Shown: positions 8,677 through 50,818 of the stretch, piece by piece | How positions within the stretch are numbered: the stretch's first letter is position 1 | Layout of the letters: each line of letters begins with the position of its first letter | NCBI GenBank assembly: GCA_944387445.1 | Contig: CALXEX010000003.1 | Span: 24,538 to 88,537 of the forward strand | Reading direction: 5' to 3' | Source: an uncultured Clostridia bacterium | GTDB lineage: Bacteria; Bacillota; Clostridia; TANB77; CAG-508 | DNA length: 64,000 nt | Notes under the pieces: generated by a model | Seen by the model: the letters and a program-made list of their open reading frames with translations, nothing else | Told to the model about the DNA's origin: nothing | The model's database searches: none | Program-made: the position numbers and the translations under genes

Positions 8677-11600
8677 ATGCAAGAAACGGTAAAAACAAAA
8701 AAAGTAGGAGAAATATTTCGTGACTATCAAACAAAATCCAATATACAATATGCCAATATTCAAGGATTAAATGTAGTAAAAAAGACAAATACTTTGCAAG
8801 TTATATTGTATTTTGACGAATATATAGAAATCAAAGAACTATGGTTTTTTGAAAAATTTTTAATCGATAGATTTCATTTTGAACATATTGATATGATTAT
8901 CAAATATCATGAAGGTGTTGTACTAAAAGATATTAAGACAGAATGGAGAAATATTATTGCTTATATGTCACACAAATATCCATTAATGAAACCAATGCTT
9001 TTATTAAAAAGTGATGTAGAAGTTGATGGAAATGAAGTTAATATCAAAATGCATATTCGAGGAGCAGAATTTTTAAAGGCCAAAAAAACAGATAAAGAAT
9101 TAGAAAAAGTTTTGAAAAATTTATTTGGAAAAGAATATAAAGTAAATCTTACAGAACAATTATCGAAAGAAGAAATAGAAGAAATACGAGAAGAAATTAA
9201 GCAAGTAGAAGAAAAAGCTATAGCCCATATTGAAGAATTAAATGCTGAAAAACAAAGAGAAAATGTAAACAATGAAAATCATGATGAATATGGAAATGTA
9301 CCAGAATACAATGATCCAGATTATGTACCACCTACAGATATGGAAGGATATATTCCAGAAGAGGCGATGGATGGAATACCACCAATAGAAGGAATGGATG
9401 ACTTCCATGAACAAGAATATATTATGGGAAAACCATCAAAAGCGAAAGAAAATAAGGTAGCGATAAAAGATATTACAGCAAGTAATTCTAGAATTACCAT
9501 AGAAGGAAGAGTGTTAACAAGTGAATGTCGTGAAACCAGAACAGGAAAAGGTATGTTGATTTTTGACATTTATGATGGAACAGGAACAATTACTTGTAAA
9601 TCTTTTGCAAAAGATGCAACAGAAGGCAATGAAATTATTGATAAAATTCAAGATGCAAAAGTGATTAAAGCAGTTGGAAAAGCAGGATTAGATGCCTATG
9701 CTGGTGATGTAACGATTATGGCAAATACGATTATGGTAAGCCATATGGATGTTCCAGAATTACCAGAAGAAGATGAAAGCACACCACTAATATTGGGAAT
9801 GAATCCAAATATTACAGAACCATTGGTAAAAATTGCCGAATTAAATGTAGATGATGGAAAAGTTTCTATTGAGGGTGAAGTTATCGATATGGAGGATAGA
9901 GAACTAAAGTCAGGAAAAACCTTGCTTAGTTTTGATATCTATGATGGAACCAGCAGTATGACTTGTAAAGCGTTCTTAAATAAAGATAATAGCAAACGAG
10001 TGATTAAAAGAATTAAAAATGCCAAAGGATTGAAGATAGCTGGAACAGCACAAATGGATTCTTTCTCAAATGAATTGACAATTATGGCAAATACGATTGT
10101 AGAAGGAGAAGGCATTAAAAAGAAGATTAGAGAAGACCATGCAGAAGTAAAAAGAGTAGAACTTCATATGCATACAAAAATGAGTCAAATGGATGCCATG
10201 ACCTCAGCAACAGATTTAATCAAAAGAGCTATGAAATGGGGAATGAAATCAATTGCGATTACTGACCATGGTGTTGTACAAGCATTCCCAGAAGCCCATA
10301 AGTTATTGGGATATGACAATCCAGATATGAAAATTATTTATGGTGTAGAAGCCTATTTAGCACCAGATAATACAAAAACCGTATATAATGGTAAAAAACA
10401 AAGTATTGATACCACATATTGTGTATTAGACTTGGAAACAACAGGATTTTCAGCAACAACTGAAAAAATTACAGAAATTGGTGTTATGAAAGTAAAAGAT
10501 GGTGAAGTTATCGATGAGTTTAGTTGTTTTGTCAATCCTGAAAAACATATTCCAGAAAGAGTTACAGAAGTTACCAACATTACAGATGAGATGGTAAAAG
10601 ATGCAGAAACCATTGATAAAGTATTTCCAAAATTATTAGCATTTTTGGGAGATGACAAAGAAACGGTTATTGTAGCACATAATGCAAATTTTGATGTTGG
10701 ATTCTTAAAACAAAATGCCAAAGTATTGGGATATGATTTTGATTATACGTATTTAGACACTTTAAGCTTAGCGAAAGATTTATTCCCAGACTATAAGAAA
10801 TACAAATTAGGAAAAATTGCAGAAAATTTAGGAATTAAAGTAGAAGTCGCACACCGTGCTTTAGATGATGTAGATACAACAGTAAAAGTATTTAAAGTGA
10901 TGGTGGATATGTTAAAGAAAAAGGGAGCAACTATCGTAGAAGACATTGATAGAGTAGCAAAAAGTGAAGAGGCAAAAAAAGAAGAATACAAAAAACTAAA
11001 AACTTATCATGCTATTATCTTAGCTAAAAACTATGTAGGATTAAAGAATTTATATAAATTAGTATCTTTATCACACTTACATTATTTTTATAGAAAACCA
11101 CGTATTTTAAAAAGCTTGTATAAAAAATATTCAGAGGGATTGATACTTCGGAAGTGCCTGTGAAGCAGGAGAGTTATATCAAGCAATTGAGCTTGGAAAA
11201 ACCGATGAGGAAATCGAAGAAATAGCCAATGACTATGATTATTTAGAAATACAACCAACTGGAAATAATCAATTCTTAATTCGAAATGGAACAGTTGCAG
11301 ATGAAGAAGCCTTAAGAGATATTAATAGAAAAATTGTAGAATTGGGAGAAAAATTAAATAAACCAGTTGTAGCTACTTGTGATGTGCATTTTATGGACCC
11401 ACAAGATGAAATTTATAGACGTATTTTAGAAGCAGGACAAAAATATGATGATGCAGATAATCAAGCACCATTATATTTAAGAACAACTGAAGAAATGCTA
11501 GAAGAATTTAGCTATTTAGGAAAAGAAAAAGCCTATGAAGTGGTTGTAACAAATACCAATAAAATATCAGATATGTGTGACCAAATCAGCCCAATATCTC

Positions 11601-38605: not shown

Positions 38606-38682
38606 ATAATTTTAAAAAAATCAAAAATTTGTTTGACATTTTTTTGTTTGTATGATATGATGAAACAAAATAGGAGAATGGA

Positions 38683-41816: not shown

Positions 41817-43634
41817 ATGCCAGGACCAATGGGAGGACCTAGAAGAGGTCAAACAACAGAAAGAGCAAAAGATTTTAAGAAAACAACAAAAAAATTAATA
41901 CGTTCTTATTTAGTAGATTATAAAATACCAATTATTATTGTTATGATATTTGCAATTGGTAGTACCATATTTACCATTGTAGGACCTAAAATATTAGGAA
42001 ATGCAACAACAGAAATCTTTAATGGATTGGTTAGTAAATTAAGTGGTGGAACAGGAATTGACTTTGGAAAAGTTGGTCAAATTGCTTTAATGTTATTAGG
42101 TTTATATGTTATCAGCGCATTATTCTCTTTTGTACAGAGATTTCTAATGACAAACGTGGCACAAAAAATCACATATAAATTAAGAAATGATATAGCAATC
42201 AAAATTAATAAATTGCCAATGAAGTACTTTGATAAAAAGACACATGGAGAAGTATTATCTATTATTACAAATGATATTGATACATTAAGTATGAACTTAA
42301 ACCAAAGTATCACTGAAATTATTACATCTGTGTGTACGATTATTGGTATTTTGGTTATGATGTTTTCAATCAGTTGGCAAATGACACTAATTTCATTAGT
42401 AATCTTACCAATAGCAGGCATATTAGTCACATTTATTGTCAAAAAATCACAAAAATATTTTATAAAACAACAAGATTACTTAGGACACGTAAATGGTCAA
42501 GTAGAAGAAATATATGGTGGATTAAATATTGTAAAAGTATTTAATGCTGAAGGAAAAGTAACAAAAGATTTTGAAAAGGCTAATGACGAATTATATCATT
42601 CTGGTTGGAAATCACAATTCTTATCAGGTTTAATGCATCCGGTTATGAACTTTATATCAAATGTAGGATATGTAGCAGTAGCGGTAGCTGGTGGATATTT
42701 AGCAATTCAAGGAACCATTACCGTTGGAAATATCCAAAGTTTTATACAATATAATAAACAATTTACACAACCAATTAACCAATTAGCACAAATATCTAAT
42801 ATGTTACAAGCTATGATGGCAGCAGCAGAAAGAATCTTTGAATTCTTAGAAGAACCAGAAGAAGTCGTAACTGCAAAAGGAAATATTGATACTTCTAAAC
42901 TAAAAGGAAATGTAGAATTTAAACATGTTAAATTTGGATATGATCCAGAAAGAACAATCATCAATGACTTCAATAGCAGTGTACATGAGGGACAAAAAAT
43001 CGCAATTGTTGGCCCAACAGGAGCAGGAAAAACAACCATGGTAAAATTGTTAATGCGTTTTTATGATGTCACAGATGGAGAAATCGATGTCGATGGACAT
43101 AATGTAAAAGACTTTGATAGAGGCGAACTTCGTAAAATGTTTGGTATGGTTTTACAAGACACCTGGTTATTTGGTGGAACAGTAAAAGAAAATATCAAAT
43201 ATAGTAAAGAAGATGCAACAGATACAGAAGTTGTAGAAGCAGCGAAAGCAGCACATGTACATCACTTTATCAAAACATTACCAAATGGATATAATTCTAT
43301 GATCAATGAAGAATCAACAAACATATCAGCAGGTCAAAAGCAATTACTTACTATTGCCAGAGTTATATTAGCAGACCCTAAGATATTAATATTAGATGAA
43401 GCAACAAGCTCAATTGATACAAGAACAGAGATACAAATACAATCAGCAATGGATAATCTAATGAAAGGAAGAACAAGCTTTATTATTGCACATAGACTAT
43501 CAACCATTAAAAATGCAGATTTGATTTTAGTTATGAATCATGGTGACATTGTAGAACAAGGAACACATGAAGAGTTACTTGCTAAAAATGGATTTTATGC
43601 TGATTTATATAACTCACAATTCGAAGAGCTTTGA
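41817..43634 (+). CDS. ABC transporter permease/ATP-binding protein (heterodimeric partner of the upstream gene)
   Basis: GPTGAGKTT, SAGQKQL and LDEATSSID motifs; start 2 nt after the upstream stop. Confidence 0.8.
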   Translation: MPGPMGGPRRGQTTERAKDFKKTTKKLIRSYLVDYKIPIIIVMIFAIGSTIFTIVGPKILGNATTEIFNGLVSKLSGGTGIDFGKVGQIALMLLGLYVISALFSFVQRFLMTNVAQKITYKLRNDIAIKINKLPMKYFDKKTHGEVLSIITNDIDTLSMNLNQSITEIITSVCTIIGILVMMFSISWQMTLISLVILPIAGILVTFIVKKSQKYFIKQQDYLGHVNGQVEEIYGGLNIVKVFNAEGKVTKDFEKANDELYHSGWKSQFLSGLMHPVMNFISNVGYVAVAVAGGYLAIQGTITVGNIQSFIQYNKQFTQPINQLAQISNMLQAMMAAAERIFEFLEEPEEVVTAKGNIDTSKLKGNVEFKHVKFGYDPERTIINDFNSSVHEGQKIAIVGPTGAGKTTMVKLLMRFYDVTDGEIDVDGHNVKDFDRGELRKMFGMVLQDTWLFGGTVKENIKYSKEDATDTEVVEAAKAAHVHHFIKTLPNGYNSMINEESTNISAGQKQLLTIARVILADPKILILDEATSSIDTRTEIQIQSAMDNLMKGRTSFIIAHRLSTIKNADLILVMNHGDIVEQGTHEELLAKNGFYADLYNSQFEEL

Positions 43635-43825
43635 TGGATGAAAAAGTAGAATATTTTGTAGCATATGAGAAAGAGCATTTTGAGAATATCTCCACGAAAC
43701 ACAAAGACCAAATGAAAAATATTATAAATGGTAGAAAATTTAATGTTAAGTGGGCTTTGCCACTTGAATATTTTGGGGTAGAAATAGTGAAAAATGATAA
43801 AGAAAATAAAGTATATGATATATAA
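43631..43825 (+). CDS. hypothetical small protein (64 aa)
   Basis: ORF overlapping the ABC gene's stop; no family. Confidence 0.3.
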   Translation: MMDEKVEYFVAYEKEHFENISTKHKDQMKNIINGRKFNVKWALPLEYFGVEIVKNDKENKVYDI

Positions 43826-43950
43826 ACATATACTTTATTTTTATGGAAACTTTAAATAGTTAAAATTTTGTGCAAAATCTAAAAAATAATTTTTATTCAC
43901 TTGACATTAAAACAAATGTTTGATAAAATCAGCAAAAAGGATGTGGTACA

Positions 43951-44760
43951 ATGAAAACGTTAATAGTAAAGAAGCAAGCTATAAATATAACTCTAGTAGA
44001 TAATGAGGAATATATATCTTTAACAGATATTGCTAGATATAAAAATAGAGAAAATCCAAAAGGTGTGATACAAAATTGGATAAGGAATAGAAATACAATA
44101 GAGTTTTTAGGAATTTGGGAATTAATACACAACCCAAATTTTAAAGGCATCGAATTCGAGGCCTTTAAAAAAGAGGCTGGATTAAATAGTTTTACATTAG
44201 CTCCACAAAAATGGATAGAATCAACAGATGCTATAGGATTAGTTTCTAAATCTGGCAAAGGTGGTGGAACATATGCACATAGAGATATTGCTTTTGAATT
44301 TGCTTCATGGGTTTCAGTAGAGTTTAAAATATATTTAATTCAAGAGTTTGAAAGATTAAAAGAAAATGAACAAAGAGAAATAGGTTGGAGTGCTAAAAGA
44401 GAATTAAGTAAGATTAATTATATAATACATACAGATGCAATAAAAAACAATTTAATACCTAAAGAATTAACGAATAAGCAAGTAAATTTAGTATATGCCG
44501 AAGAAGCTGATGTATTAAATATGGCATTATTTGGAATGACAGCAAAAGAATGGAGAAAAAAGAATCCAAATAAAAAAGGAAATATAAGAGATTATGCAAG
44601 TATAAATGAATTAATATGTTTAGCAAACTTAGAAAATACAAATTCAATATTTATAAATGAAGGGATGCAACAATCTCAAAGGTTGTATAAATTAAATCAA
44701 ATAGCAATATCACAAATGAAAATATTAACGAAAGATAATGAAAGAAAATTATTAAAATAA
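43951..44760 (+). CDS. KilA-N domain protein (phage antirepressor-like DNA-binding N-terminus)
   Basis: KilA-N-like N-terminus (ISLTDIARYKNRENPKGVIQNWIRNRNTIEFLGIWE); own TTGACA-17-TAAAAT promoter. Confidence 0.6.
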   Translation: MKTLIVKKQAINITLVDNEEYISLTDIARYKNRENPKGVIQNWIRNRNTIEFLGIWELIHNPNFKGIEFEAFKKEAGLNSFTLAPQKWIESTDAIGLVSKSGKGGGTYAHRDIAFEFASWVSVEFKIYLIQEFERLKENEQREIGWSAKRELSKINYIIHTDAIKNNLIPKELTNKQVNLVYAEEADVLNMALFGMTAKEWRKKNPNKKGNIRDYASINELICLANLENTNSIFINEGMQQSQRLYKLNQIAISQMKILTKDNERKLLK

Positions 44761-44781
44761 AATATGACAAGGAGAAAGTAA

Positions 44782-46212
44782 ATGGAGGAAAGTTTAATTG
44801 AAGAAATAAAAGTATTAAATAGGGAAAATGATATGTTCGGAACTTATGATAAAGCAATAGCAATTTGTAATTTTTTAAATTTAGAGGATAGTAAGCAATT
44901 ATTAGAAAAAAACAATTTAATTGCTATATATGGTCCATGGGGAATTGGTAAAAGTTGCTTAATGAAAACAATACAAAGTAACTTGCCTGAAAATAAATTT
45001 GAAACAGTATGGTTTGACACTTGGAAATATGAAAAAGATGATAATTTACCATATTCATTGCTAAAATTTATGACTAAGGATAAGAAAATCAGTAAATTAA
45101 AAGAAAATGGAAAAAATATGCTAGAAATAGGATACAGTATATTAAAAAGCATGGCAAAGGGAATAGATGTTAATTTAGGAATAATAAATATAAAGCCAGG
45201 AGAGGCTATAGATGAGGTACAAAAATTAGATGAAGAAAGAGTAAAAAATATAAAAGATAATAAATGCTTGTGGGAAAAAATAGATGAATTCGAAAAAGAA
45301 TATAGTAAAATGACTTTTAATAATAAAAAATTAGTTGTATTTTTAGATGATTTGGATAGATGTGAATCAGAAAATATTATTAATCTAATATCTTCTATAA
45401 AATTGCTATTATCTGTAAATAAAAATATTATATTTATAATTGGAATAGATAAAAAAGCTGTTACTTTAGCATTGCAAAATAAATATAATAATGATTTCAA
45501 CAAAGCAGATGAATATTTAGAAAAAATATTTCCTATTAATTTTAGTATAAGCAATAATATAAATGTAGAAAATTTTGAAGATAGTATTGTTAAGATTATG
45601 AATATTAGCCATGAGGATTCGAAAAAAATAGTGGATTTTTTTGATAGTATTGCTTTTAGCAATTCTAGACATATAAAGAAAGTGTTAAGGAAATATATTT
45701 CAATAAAAGAATATTTAATAAGAAAAAATATTGACTTAAGTAATATATATAATATTATTTTAGTGTTGTATTTTATAATTATACACATTTTTCATAATGA
45801 TGAATATAAATACTTATTATTAGAAAATAAGGAAACAGTTTATAATAAAATATTATTAATAAATTATGATAGAAACACAGGAAGAAAACTAGAAAATCAA
45901 TTTGAGCAATATAATAAAAAGGAGTGCAATGTAAATTATAATAATGGAAAAAAATATGAAGTATTTAAAATATTAGTAAGGTTTTCTTCATATAAATTAA
46001 AAATAAAAGAGTTAAAAGCAGCTAAATACCTTGAAGGAGGAGCATCTATAGAATATTATAATTGGCTTGGATTATTTGATGATTCTATTTGTAAGAATTT
46101 TATTGAATTTATTATGAGTGATACTAATTTTTTAGATATACTTTTTGAAAATAGAACATATAATGATGAAAGAGTATATAATATGATAAATGAAATAAAT
46201 AATATTATATAA
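44782..46212 (+). CDS. KAP-family P-loop NTPase
   Basis: Walker A YGPWGIGKS and Walker B FLDDLDRC with an inserted hydrophobic segment. Confidence 0.7.
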   Translation: MEESLIEEIKVLNRENDMFGTYDKAIAICNFLNLEDSKQLLEKNNLIAIYGPWGIGKSCLMKTIQSNLPENKFETVWFDTWKYEKDDNLPYSLLKFMTKDKKISKLKENGKNMLEIGYSILKSMAKGIDVNLGIINIKPGEAIDEVQKLDEERVKNIKDNKCLWEKIDEFEKEYSKMTFNNKKLVVFLDDLDRCESENIINLISSIKLLLSVNKNIIFIIGIDKKAVTLALQNKYNNDFNKADEYLEKIFPINFSISNNINVENFEDSIVKIMNISHEDSKKIVDFFDSIAFSNSRHIKKVLRKYISIKEYLIRKNIDLSNIYNIILVLYFIIIHIFHNDEYKYLLLENKETVYNKILLINYDRNTGRKLENQFEQYNKKECNVNYNNGKKYEVFKILVRFSSYKLKIKELKAAKYLEGGASIEYYNWLGLFDDSICKNFIEFIMSDTNFLDILFENRTYNDERVYNMINEINNII

Positions 46213-46326
46213 TAAATTTTCTTCCCTCGAAGATGCACAACACAATTTGAAGAAGTTGAAGAATAGGATCCATTGGGACCAGGTCCGTTTGGAGCATTAC
46301 AGAATAACAATAAATTCACTTAAATA

Positions 46327-46360
46327 AAAGGAAAGGCATCAAAATATATGCCTTTCCTTT
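46327..46360. terminator. bidirectional intrinsic terminator between convergent genes
   Basis: AAAGGAAAGGCAT-loop-ATGCCTTTCCTTT. Confidence 0.7.
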
Positions 46361-50742: not shown

Positions 50743-50818
50743 TGGGGCTTCTAACGGGAATTGAACCCGTGACCTCAGCCTTACCAAGGCTGCACTCTAC
50801 CAACTGAGCTATAGAAGC
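50743..50818 (-). tRNA. tRNA-Thr (anticodon GGT), CCA encoded
   Basis: Cloverleaf GCTTCTA acceptor, anticodon loop CTTGGTAAG, T-arm GGTTCAATTCC; 76 nt. Confidence 0.85.

Follow-up and report, generated by a model that had tools for sequence, protein, structure and literature searches.

A horizontally exchanged cassette of two stacked candidate anti-phage genes, for a KilA-N protein and a KAP-family NTPase, in an uncultured gut Clostridia bacterium

We analyzed a two-gene unit encoding a KilA-N protein and a KAP-family P-loop NTPase (hereafter KAP) in a stretch of 64,000 nucleotides (nt) of an uncultured gut Clostridia bacterium known from metagenome assemblies only (assembly GCA_944387445.1, contig CALXEX010000003.1, positions 24,538 to 88,537; hereafter the window). 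Our conclusion, to which we assign a probability of roughly 0.6, is that the unit represents a cassette of two stacked, co-transcribed single-gene anti-phage candidates, each of an already catalogued kind, and not a new two-gene system. Judged from the sequences compared, the cassette, which covers about 2.35 kb (43896-46251), is a discrete, variable and horizontally exchanged unit, the KilA-N and KAP genes are distributed independently of each other and do not form an obligate pair, and a reading as defence candidate is reasonable for each of them.

Gene structure and protein families

The KilA-N gene (43951-44760, + strand, 269 aa) is followed, after a spacer of 21 nt (44761-44781) carrying the AGGAG ribosome-binding site (RBS) of the next gene, by the KAP gene (44782-46212, + strand, 476 aa). 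Both genes with their domains, the Walker motifs of KAP, the promoter and the flanking ABC exporter and convergent BI-1 (Bax1-I) genes had been described in a first-pass annotation of this DNA and were confirmed here. The sigma-70-type promoter (43901-43929, + strand) consists of a -35 element TTGACA (43901-43906), a spacer of 17 nt and an extended -10 element TGaTAAAAT (43921-43929). In a promoter scan it was the top match on the + strand of the region (11/12 plus TG). The score alone proves little, because AT-rich DNA yields many weaker matches (25 found versus 37 expected in shuffled sequences). The positions of promoter and RBS are kept in five species, represented by the window and the genomes L016-L019, even where the upstream flank is unrelated, and in L019 the conserved block starts a few bases 5′ of the -35 element. 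No terminator-like site was found between the two genes, suggesting that they are transcribed together from this single, constitutive-looking promoter.

The promoter spacer contains a palindrome, AAAC-N4-GTTT (43910-43921), whose half-sites, but not its central 4 nt, are kept in the five species, and which resembles an operator. Control of the cassette promoter by the SOS regulator LexA was considered and rejected, since this motif occurs three times in the window compared to 4.1 expected occurrences and is not present at the lexA promoter. The lexA promoter region itself (38636-38663) carries an 8-bp inverted repeat, TTTTGTTT-N12-AAACAAAA, that overlaps the -10 element and may be the LexA operator of the source organism.

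The KilA-N protein matched Pfam PF04383 with 73 bits (cut-off 23.8, E=1.8e-20) and, over its full length, the PADLOC model PDC-S22 (E=1.4e-129, aa 2-267 versus profile positions 5-272 of 281). A further match was obtained with phrog_2657 (E=4e-58), a PHROG family annotated as transcriptional regulator. The protein starts with a KilA-N/APSES-like DNA-binding domain (aa ~1-140); a long helix spans aa 123-165, and the C-terminal region is helical and conserved. Its AlphaFold2 model is confident for residues 1-140 only, which are followed by a helix of 43 residues and a poorly modelled helical region. The model matched viral KilA-N proteins in a fold search of BFVD and was weakly similar to the DNA-binding dimer DdrC (E=4e-3, template-modelling (TM) score 0.32) and to APSES domains. 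A solved structure with sequence similarity was found neither for the KilA-N protein nor for KAP. Both genes are under purifying selection, with dN/dS values of 0.08-0.33 taken together (KilA-N 0.08-0.33, KAP 0.22-0.31).

KAP matched Pfam PF07693 (KAP_NTPase) at aa 45-263 with 97.9 bits (cut-off 20, E=8.4e-28) and the PADLOC model PDC-S20 (PDLC04959; E=2.1e-28, aa 41-407 versus profile positions 37-404 of 464). Weaker matches confined to the core were obtained with the PADLOC models for PifA (E=5e-17) and QatA (E=4e-19). The check with PADLOC-style hidden Markov models, which the first-pass annotation had proposed, thus left its statement intact that the pair is not a named system, yet assigned each gene separately to a catalogued candidate. 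The Walker A motif GPWGIGKS is located at aa 51-58 (44932-44955) and the Walker B motif FLDDLD at aa 187-192 (45340-45357), the latter in the context VVFLDDLD (aa 185-192). Among 65 homologues, G51, W53, G54, G56, K57, S58, L188, D189, D190 and D192 are invariant and V186, F187 and L191 nearly so.

Transmembrane helices in the NTPase domain are typical of the KAP family, though not universal. The first-pass annotation had reported an inserted hydrophobic stretch, but the only such stretch of KAP (aa 319-337, Kyte-Doolittle (KD) value 2.06), a possible membrane span, lies after Walker B, and the insert between Walker A and B (aa ~100-160) is polar with a low predicted local distance difference test (pLDDT) score. 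Membership in the family stands without a transmembrane insert, because profile and motifs carry the assignment. The AlphaFold2 model of KAP is confident (pLDDT 83.8, predicted TM score 0.81). Besides the ATPase core and a helical domain, it contains a C-terminal alpha/beta region of about 170 aa that is well modelled. The best fold neighbours of this model in Foldseek (E=1e-5 to 4e-3) were archaeal PAB2304, RdrA of RADAR, Orc1/Cdc6 and BrxC, with low TM-scores (0.3-0.43) and 10-15% identity. The GC content of the KAP gene is low (19-25%), amounting to 19% in its 3′ half compared to 28-33% in the flanks.

Distribution, exchange and erosion of the cassette

The same block from promoter to 3′ tail was found in the four other species-level genomes L016-L019. 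Compared to L016, the window cassette is 97-100% identical at the nucleotide level and the adjacent ABC gene 53-72%; compared to L017, KAP is 94-100% identical and the flanks about 50-76%. The much higher similarity of the cassette than of its flanks between species suggests horizontal exchange of a mobile cargo. L017-L019 carry a different allele of the KilA-N N-terminal part (~140 residues, 53-60% aa identity), whereas the last ~70 residues of KilA-N and KAP are 92-100% identical to the window, suggesting that the KilA-N gene is a recombinant mosaic.

The shared block ends about 39 nt past the KAP stop codon, near 46251, and beyond this position the right flank differs in every genome. Alignment identified the segment 46213-46251 (TAAATTTTCTTCCCTCGAAGATGCACAACACAATTTGAA, + strand) as a conserved 3′ tail of the cassette with a right boundary common to all five species. 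The core motif of the tail is single-copy in the window and was found only behind this KAP clade in the 171 loci searched. It is followed by lineage-specific junction DNA (46252-46326), which contains a BamHI site and a short palindrome (GGACC-A-GGTCC) and is partly common to L016 only, and by a strong bidirectional intrinsic terminator (46327-46360; 13-bp stem, then a T run) common to the KAP end and the convergent Bax1-I gene. The 3′ flank had been described as a possible scar of atypical GC content with a BamHI site inside a palindrome. Of this description, the GC difference stands, although it is modest (35% versus roughly 19-26% in neighbouring windows), and the flank indeed includes the right end of the conserved block, near 46251, whereas the GGATCC site (46266-46271) adjoins the palindrome GGGACCAGGTCC (46275-46286, 5-bp arms) and does not lie within it. 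The possibilities that the flank is a gene remnant or a dispersed repeat were rejected, as it showed no coding similarity and the palindrome motif occurs only once in the window; neither copies outside the source species nor a repeat family were found. Only the position of the junction is meaningful in the 3′ flank. In L016, the cassette is directly followed by an open reading frame (ORF) of 211 aa (11571-12206), whose N-terminus resembles IS200/REP-associated tyrosine transposases by inspection. On both flanks of this ORF, a TTGGACCGGTTC-like motif resembling the GGGACCAGGTCC of the window is present in repeated copies.

The order LexA-ABC-ABC-KilA-N is syntenic in every lineage of the genus sampled, and the slot behind KilA-N is variable. 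An intact KAP gene is present in the source species and the four others. In L010, L011 and L014, KAP carries two internal deletions that left an ORF of 48 aa, and L188, L189 and L191 contain a 41-aa stub in which KAP aa 1-5 are joined to aa 83-114. At L208:4001-4660, KAP is truncated and matches residues 1-220 only, with an intact KilA-N gene of the alternative allele. Of the commonly recovered lineages without KAP, P0131 has nothing behind KilA-N before a convergent P-type ATPase gene, lineage P0181 an unrelated 88-aa ORF before Bax1-I, and lineage P0204 a TspO gene. In the lineages lacking KAP, homology to the window ends at the KilA-N stop codon. Conversely, at L019:9149-9913 a prematurely stopped KilA-N gene (254 aa) precedes an intact KAP gene. 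The presence of intact KilA-N where KAP is gone or eroded indicates that KilA-N was kept without KAP and that KAP, which these populations can do without, eroded more than once. The first-pass annotation had made absence from close relatives a test of its proposed island; in several congeners, KAP is indeed deleted, stubbed, absent or replaced, but KilA-N is retained everywhere sampled. In a sister lineage, an 88-aa ORF with its own promoter-like sequence is located between KilA-N and Bax1-I (L180:6968-7234, + strand, and the same place in L181-L187).

KilA-N was found upstream of KAP only in seven loci of the KAP clade with at least 85% identity (the window, L016-L019, L198 and L208). No KilA-N family gene was present in the available flanks of about 32 evaluable KAP orthologues with 33-63% identity from genomes and metagenomes, and none of 80 KilA-N loci on viral contigs of IMG/VR contained KAP. 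IMG/VR contains no member of the KAP clade, and in phage records the clade was represented by one weak partial match only (26.7% identity, E=2e-6). Co-occurrence across the diversity of either family, as expected of an obligate system, was thus not observed, and the earlier proposal of a functional unit made up of KilA-N and KAP was not borne out.

The surroundings of the distant KAP orthologues include genes for AAA_21 plus RloB (AbiLi/AbiLii), a Schlafen-type helicase, an NgoPII restriction enzyme, type I specificity subunits, type II methylases and Cas9, so that by gene content these orthologues are located in defence islands. Together with the matches to PDC-S22 and PDC-S20, this agrees with the earlier statement that such genes recur in phage-defence contexts. 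In six genomes, KAP orthologues are directly followed by a convergent, conserved ORF of about 96 aa without Pfam family (MNNLREVNDDILKDWL...YYRNGFxDGxQLxxGC), with copies on the - strand at L020:11567-11860, L022:13565-13855 and 18972-19259, L023:2681-2971, L027:1604-1888, L031:4283-4585 and 8677-8976, and L033:3687-3980. Occurring twice in two of the genomes, it seems to punctuate defence-gene cassettes. As a hidden partner of KAP it was dismissed, since the window lacks it.

With 894 clusters at 50% identity (E≤1e-30), the KilA-N family is a large one. It was found in Bacillota, Bacteroidota and Pseudomonadota at 50-65% identity, and in several phyla its members are carried by phages, satellites, plasmids or transposons. 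Among 12 family sequences from different phyla with 52-74% identity, 72 residues are invariant. The family gene is located between the ImmA/repressor module and the integrase gene in Staphylococcus phage EW and between repressor and integrase genes in Streptococcus satellites. Other copies were found beside Tn3-type resolvase genes, on a plasmid resembling an integrative and conjugative element, or alone among housekeeping genes. In 15 of 44 non-redundant cases on viral contigs, the next gene downstream of KilA-N is one for a tyrosine or serine recombinase. Besides KAP, the family is coupled to a YobI-type NTPase gene (L138) and to type I, IIG and III restriction-modification (RM) genes. Translational coupling by overlaps or gaps of a few bases was seen at L138:649-5108 with a 1217-aa YobI-type NTPase, at L100:1553-7303 with a type III mod/res pair, at L121:1547-9418 with a PLD-SNF2 helicase and an Eco57I-type enzyme, at L125:3426-6348 with a type I HsdS, and at L094:4073-7399 with an Eco57I-type methylase.

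In the window, the cassette is preceded by the genes for LexA and the two-gene ABC exporter and followed by the convergent Bax1-I gene. The other genes around it, encoding a DNA-alkylation-repair protein, a GH18 protein, a sigma factor, tRNA-Thr and threonyl-tRNA synthetase, have housekeeping character, and neither an integrase gene nor a prophage was found near the unit in the gene content of the window. The tRNA-Thr (50746-50818) is the only structured RNA that Rfam identified in the window. An ORF of 64 aa (43631-43825) is translationally coupled to the second ABC-exporter gene, its start overlapping the stop codon of the latter; it is kept in L016-L018, where in L016 it is part of the highly similar exchanged block, and is replaced in L019. 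In L174, L176, L177, L179, L188, L190 and L191, the second ABC-exporter gene is split into ORFs of 327 and 280 aa, which is due either to a frameshift or pseudogenization or to an assembly error.

Alternative explanations and proposed function

An obligate two-component system, in which KilA-N, on sensing or binding phage DNA, activates KAP and neither protein works alone, would account for the single promoter, the 21-nt distance without internal terminator, the retention of the pair in seven loci and the movement of the whole cassette between species as a unit; the similar coupling of KilA-N to the YobI-type NTPase in L138 also fits. We nevertheless regard it as improbable in view of the ~32 KAP orthologues without KilA-N, the 0/80 viral KilA-N loci with KAP, the intact KilA-N genes where KAP is deleted or absent, the intact KAP behind the prematurely stopped KilA-N of L019, and the 92-97% identity of KAP behind exchanged KilA-N N-domains (53-60% aa identity). 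A more general version of such cooperation would see PDC-S22-type KilA-N proteins as portable DNA sensors or licensing front-ends that join many effectors, among them KAP, YobI/Tmn-type NTPases and type I, IIG and III enzymes, with the N-domain swaps reflecting an arms race of recognition. KilA-N and KAP would then exemplify a modular class of immunity that combines KilA-N with an effector. This idea is speculative and in our estimation unlikely.

A transcription factor that controls its own promoter and whatever cargo follows (KAP, RM genes, YobI or nothing) would leave KAP as the only defence gene. In favour of this explanation, KilA-N has a DNA-binding fold and belongs to a PHROG family with a regulator annotation, its winged DNA-binding domain, long helix and helical bundle weakly resemble DdrC, wherever cargo is tightly coupled, the KilA-N gene lies upstream of it in the same orientation, and the promoter is conserved together with its gene. 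Against this, many loci lack a co-oriented follower, such as L172 with the convergent P-type ATPase gene or L086 and L194 with housekeeping neighbours, and a regulator without regulated cargo is hard to explain. Moreover, 72 invariant residues among distant relatives are unlike locus-specific regulators, and no operator repeat was demonstrated; we consider this role rather unlikely. Lastly, the two genes might have no defence role at all, KilA-N being a domesticated regulator at the LexA/ABC-exporter locus and KAP an NTPase with another cellular or a selfish, addiction-like function. The conserved LexA-ABC-ABC-KilA-N synteny and the otherwise housekeeping window without integrase or prophage nearby are compatible with it, yet the similarity of the cassette between species far beyond that of its flanks, the low GC content of KAP, the occurrence of the KilA-N family on mobile elements in several phyla, the location of KAP orthologues in defence islands and the lack of support for a LexA box at the promoter make it very unlikely.

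Several points weigh against the interpretation as two independent defence candidates. PDC-S20 and PDC-S22 are described as candidates only (10.1101/2024.01.29.577857), and the likeness of KAP to EF_KAP, the protective KAP of Enterococcus faecalis described below, is architectural only. The Pfam scan revealed no recognisable effector domain in KAP, and with no 19-aa window above a KD value of 0.91 between Walker A and B it lacks the canonical membrane insert. Genuine cooperation might underlie the 21-nt coupling, the common promoter and the persistence of the pair in several species, the coupling of KilA-N to other NTPase and RM genes could indicate a general partner role instead of independence, and the synteny of KilA-N behind housekeeping genes across the genus fits a domesticated regulator. 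Furthermore, all genomes compared are metagenome assemblies.

For the two stacked candidates, we propose that KilA-N, an independently mobile DNA-binding protein of the very widespread PDC-S22 family, would be a stable resident after the ABC-exporter genes that supplies the promoter, with the slot behind it serving as variable cargo space. KAP, the more likely effector of the two, might be an ATP-driven STAND/AAA+-like switch: on a phage cue, it would assemble or change conformation in a nucleotide-dependent manner, and the C-terminal domain of ~170 aa would then block infection, mirroring the stand-alone KAP proteins of Enterococcus. In this switch, the C-terminal domain may have an executing or a sensing part. 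By analogy, KilA-N most plausibly acts on foreign DNA like the prophage protein BstA or regulates transcription. The locus presents no new kind of system and opens no long-standing question. It clearly illustrates how defence genes come and go in nature in an uncultured gut lineage, in which KilA-N is kept and is exchanged between species while the slot gains, loses and erodes its cargo.

Comparison with known defence systems

The families PDC-S20 and PDC-S22 originate from a 'guilt-by-embedding' approach, which takes its candidates from genes lying inside BREX, DISARM and type I RM loci (10.1101/2024.01.29.577857). The KilA-N protein agrees with PDC-S22 in its full-length match, and members of its family are embedded in type I, IIG and III RM operons, as in the study that introduced the candidate. 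It differs in that the window copy lies outside any known system and heads a small operon with KAP beside housekeeping genes. The one characterised KilA-N-like defence protein is BstA, an abortive-infection protein of prophages of Gram-negative bacteria with a KilA-N-like N-domain and a homologue-specific, functionally defined DNA element, aba, that overlaps the 5′ end of its gene and confers self-immunity (PMC8585504). KilA-N and BstA share a two-domain organization of ~270-310 aa with an N-terminal KilA-N or KilA-N-like DNA-binding domain encoded by a stand-alone gene, and genes of the KilA-N family are, like bstA, located just downstream of prophage or satellite repressor modules. An assignment of the KilA-N protein as BstA was rejected: in the comparison with BstA of phage BTP1, whose sequence was obtained via the published aba sequence, BLASTP gave E=0.085 and hhalign a probability of 0.7%, and the PADLOC BstA model matched BstA (E=2e-124) and not the window protein.

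With PifA, which mediates the exclusion of T7 by the F plasmid, and with QatA, KAP has the KAP NTPase core in common. The similarity to PifA is restricted to aa 13-258 versus profile positions 13-255 of 720 and does not extend over the full length. For QatA, the NCBIfam score was 72 bits versus a cut-off of 600 and qatBCD neighbours are absent, so KAP is not part of a QatABCD system. The resemblance to RdrA, Orc1/Cdc6, PAB2304 and BrxC is at the fold level only, all of them being oligomeric AAA+/STAND-like ATPases, and KAP differs from RADAR and BREX by the lack of an RdrB-like deaminase gene and of a BREX partner gene.

The closest functional precedent comes from a recent study (PMC13552941, 2026), in which the stand-alone EF_KAP of E. 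faecalis and three KAPs from gut metagenomes protected against phages. In each of these proteins, the KAP NTPase is joined to a C-terminal region without known function, and protection by EF_KAP requires Walker B and this C-terminal region. EF_KAP protected equally at multiplicities of infection of 1 and 10, and its mechanism is not abortive infection, the mode of action that the first-pass annotation had suggested for the unit and that finds no support for KAP. KAP differs from the PDC-S20/EF_KAP type by its moderate PDC-S20 match, by the absence of a transmembrane helix both from the N-terminus and from the segment between the two Walker motifs, by a C-terminal region of ~170 aa compared to 322 aa in EF_KAP, and by the absence of a serine recombinase gene nearby. 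It shares with this type an N-terminal KAP NTPase domain with intact Walker A and B motifs, a C-terminal region without known domain, the origin from gut Bacillota and orthologues in defence islands. If active, KAP would be a compact, apparently soluble variant of this newly validated class of stand-alone anti-phage KAP proteins, and its confidently modelled C-terminal domain offers a handle for study.

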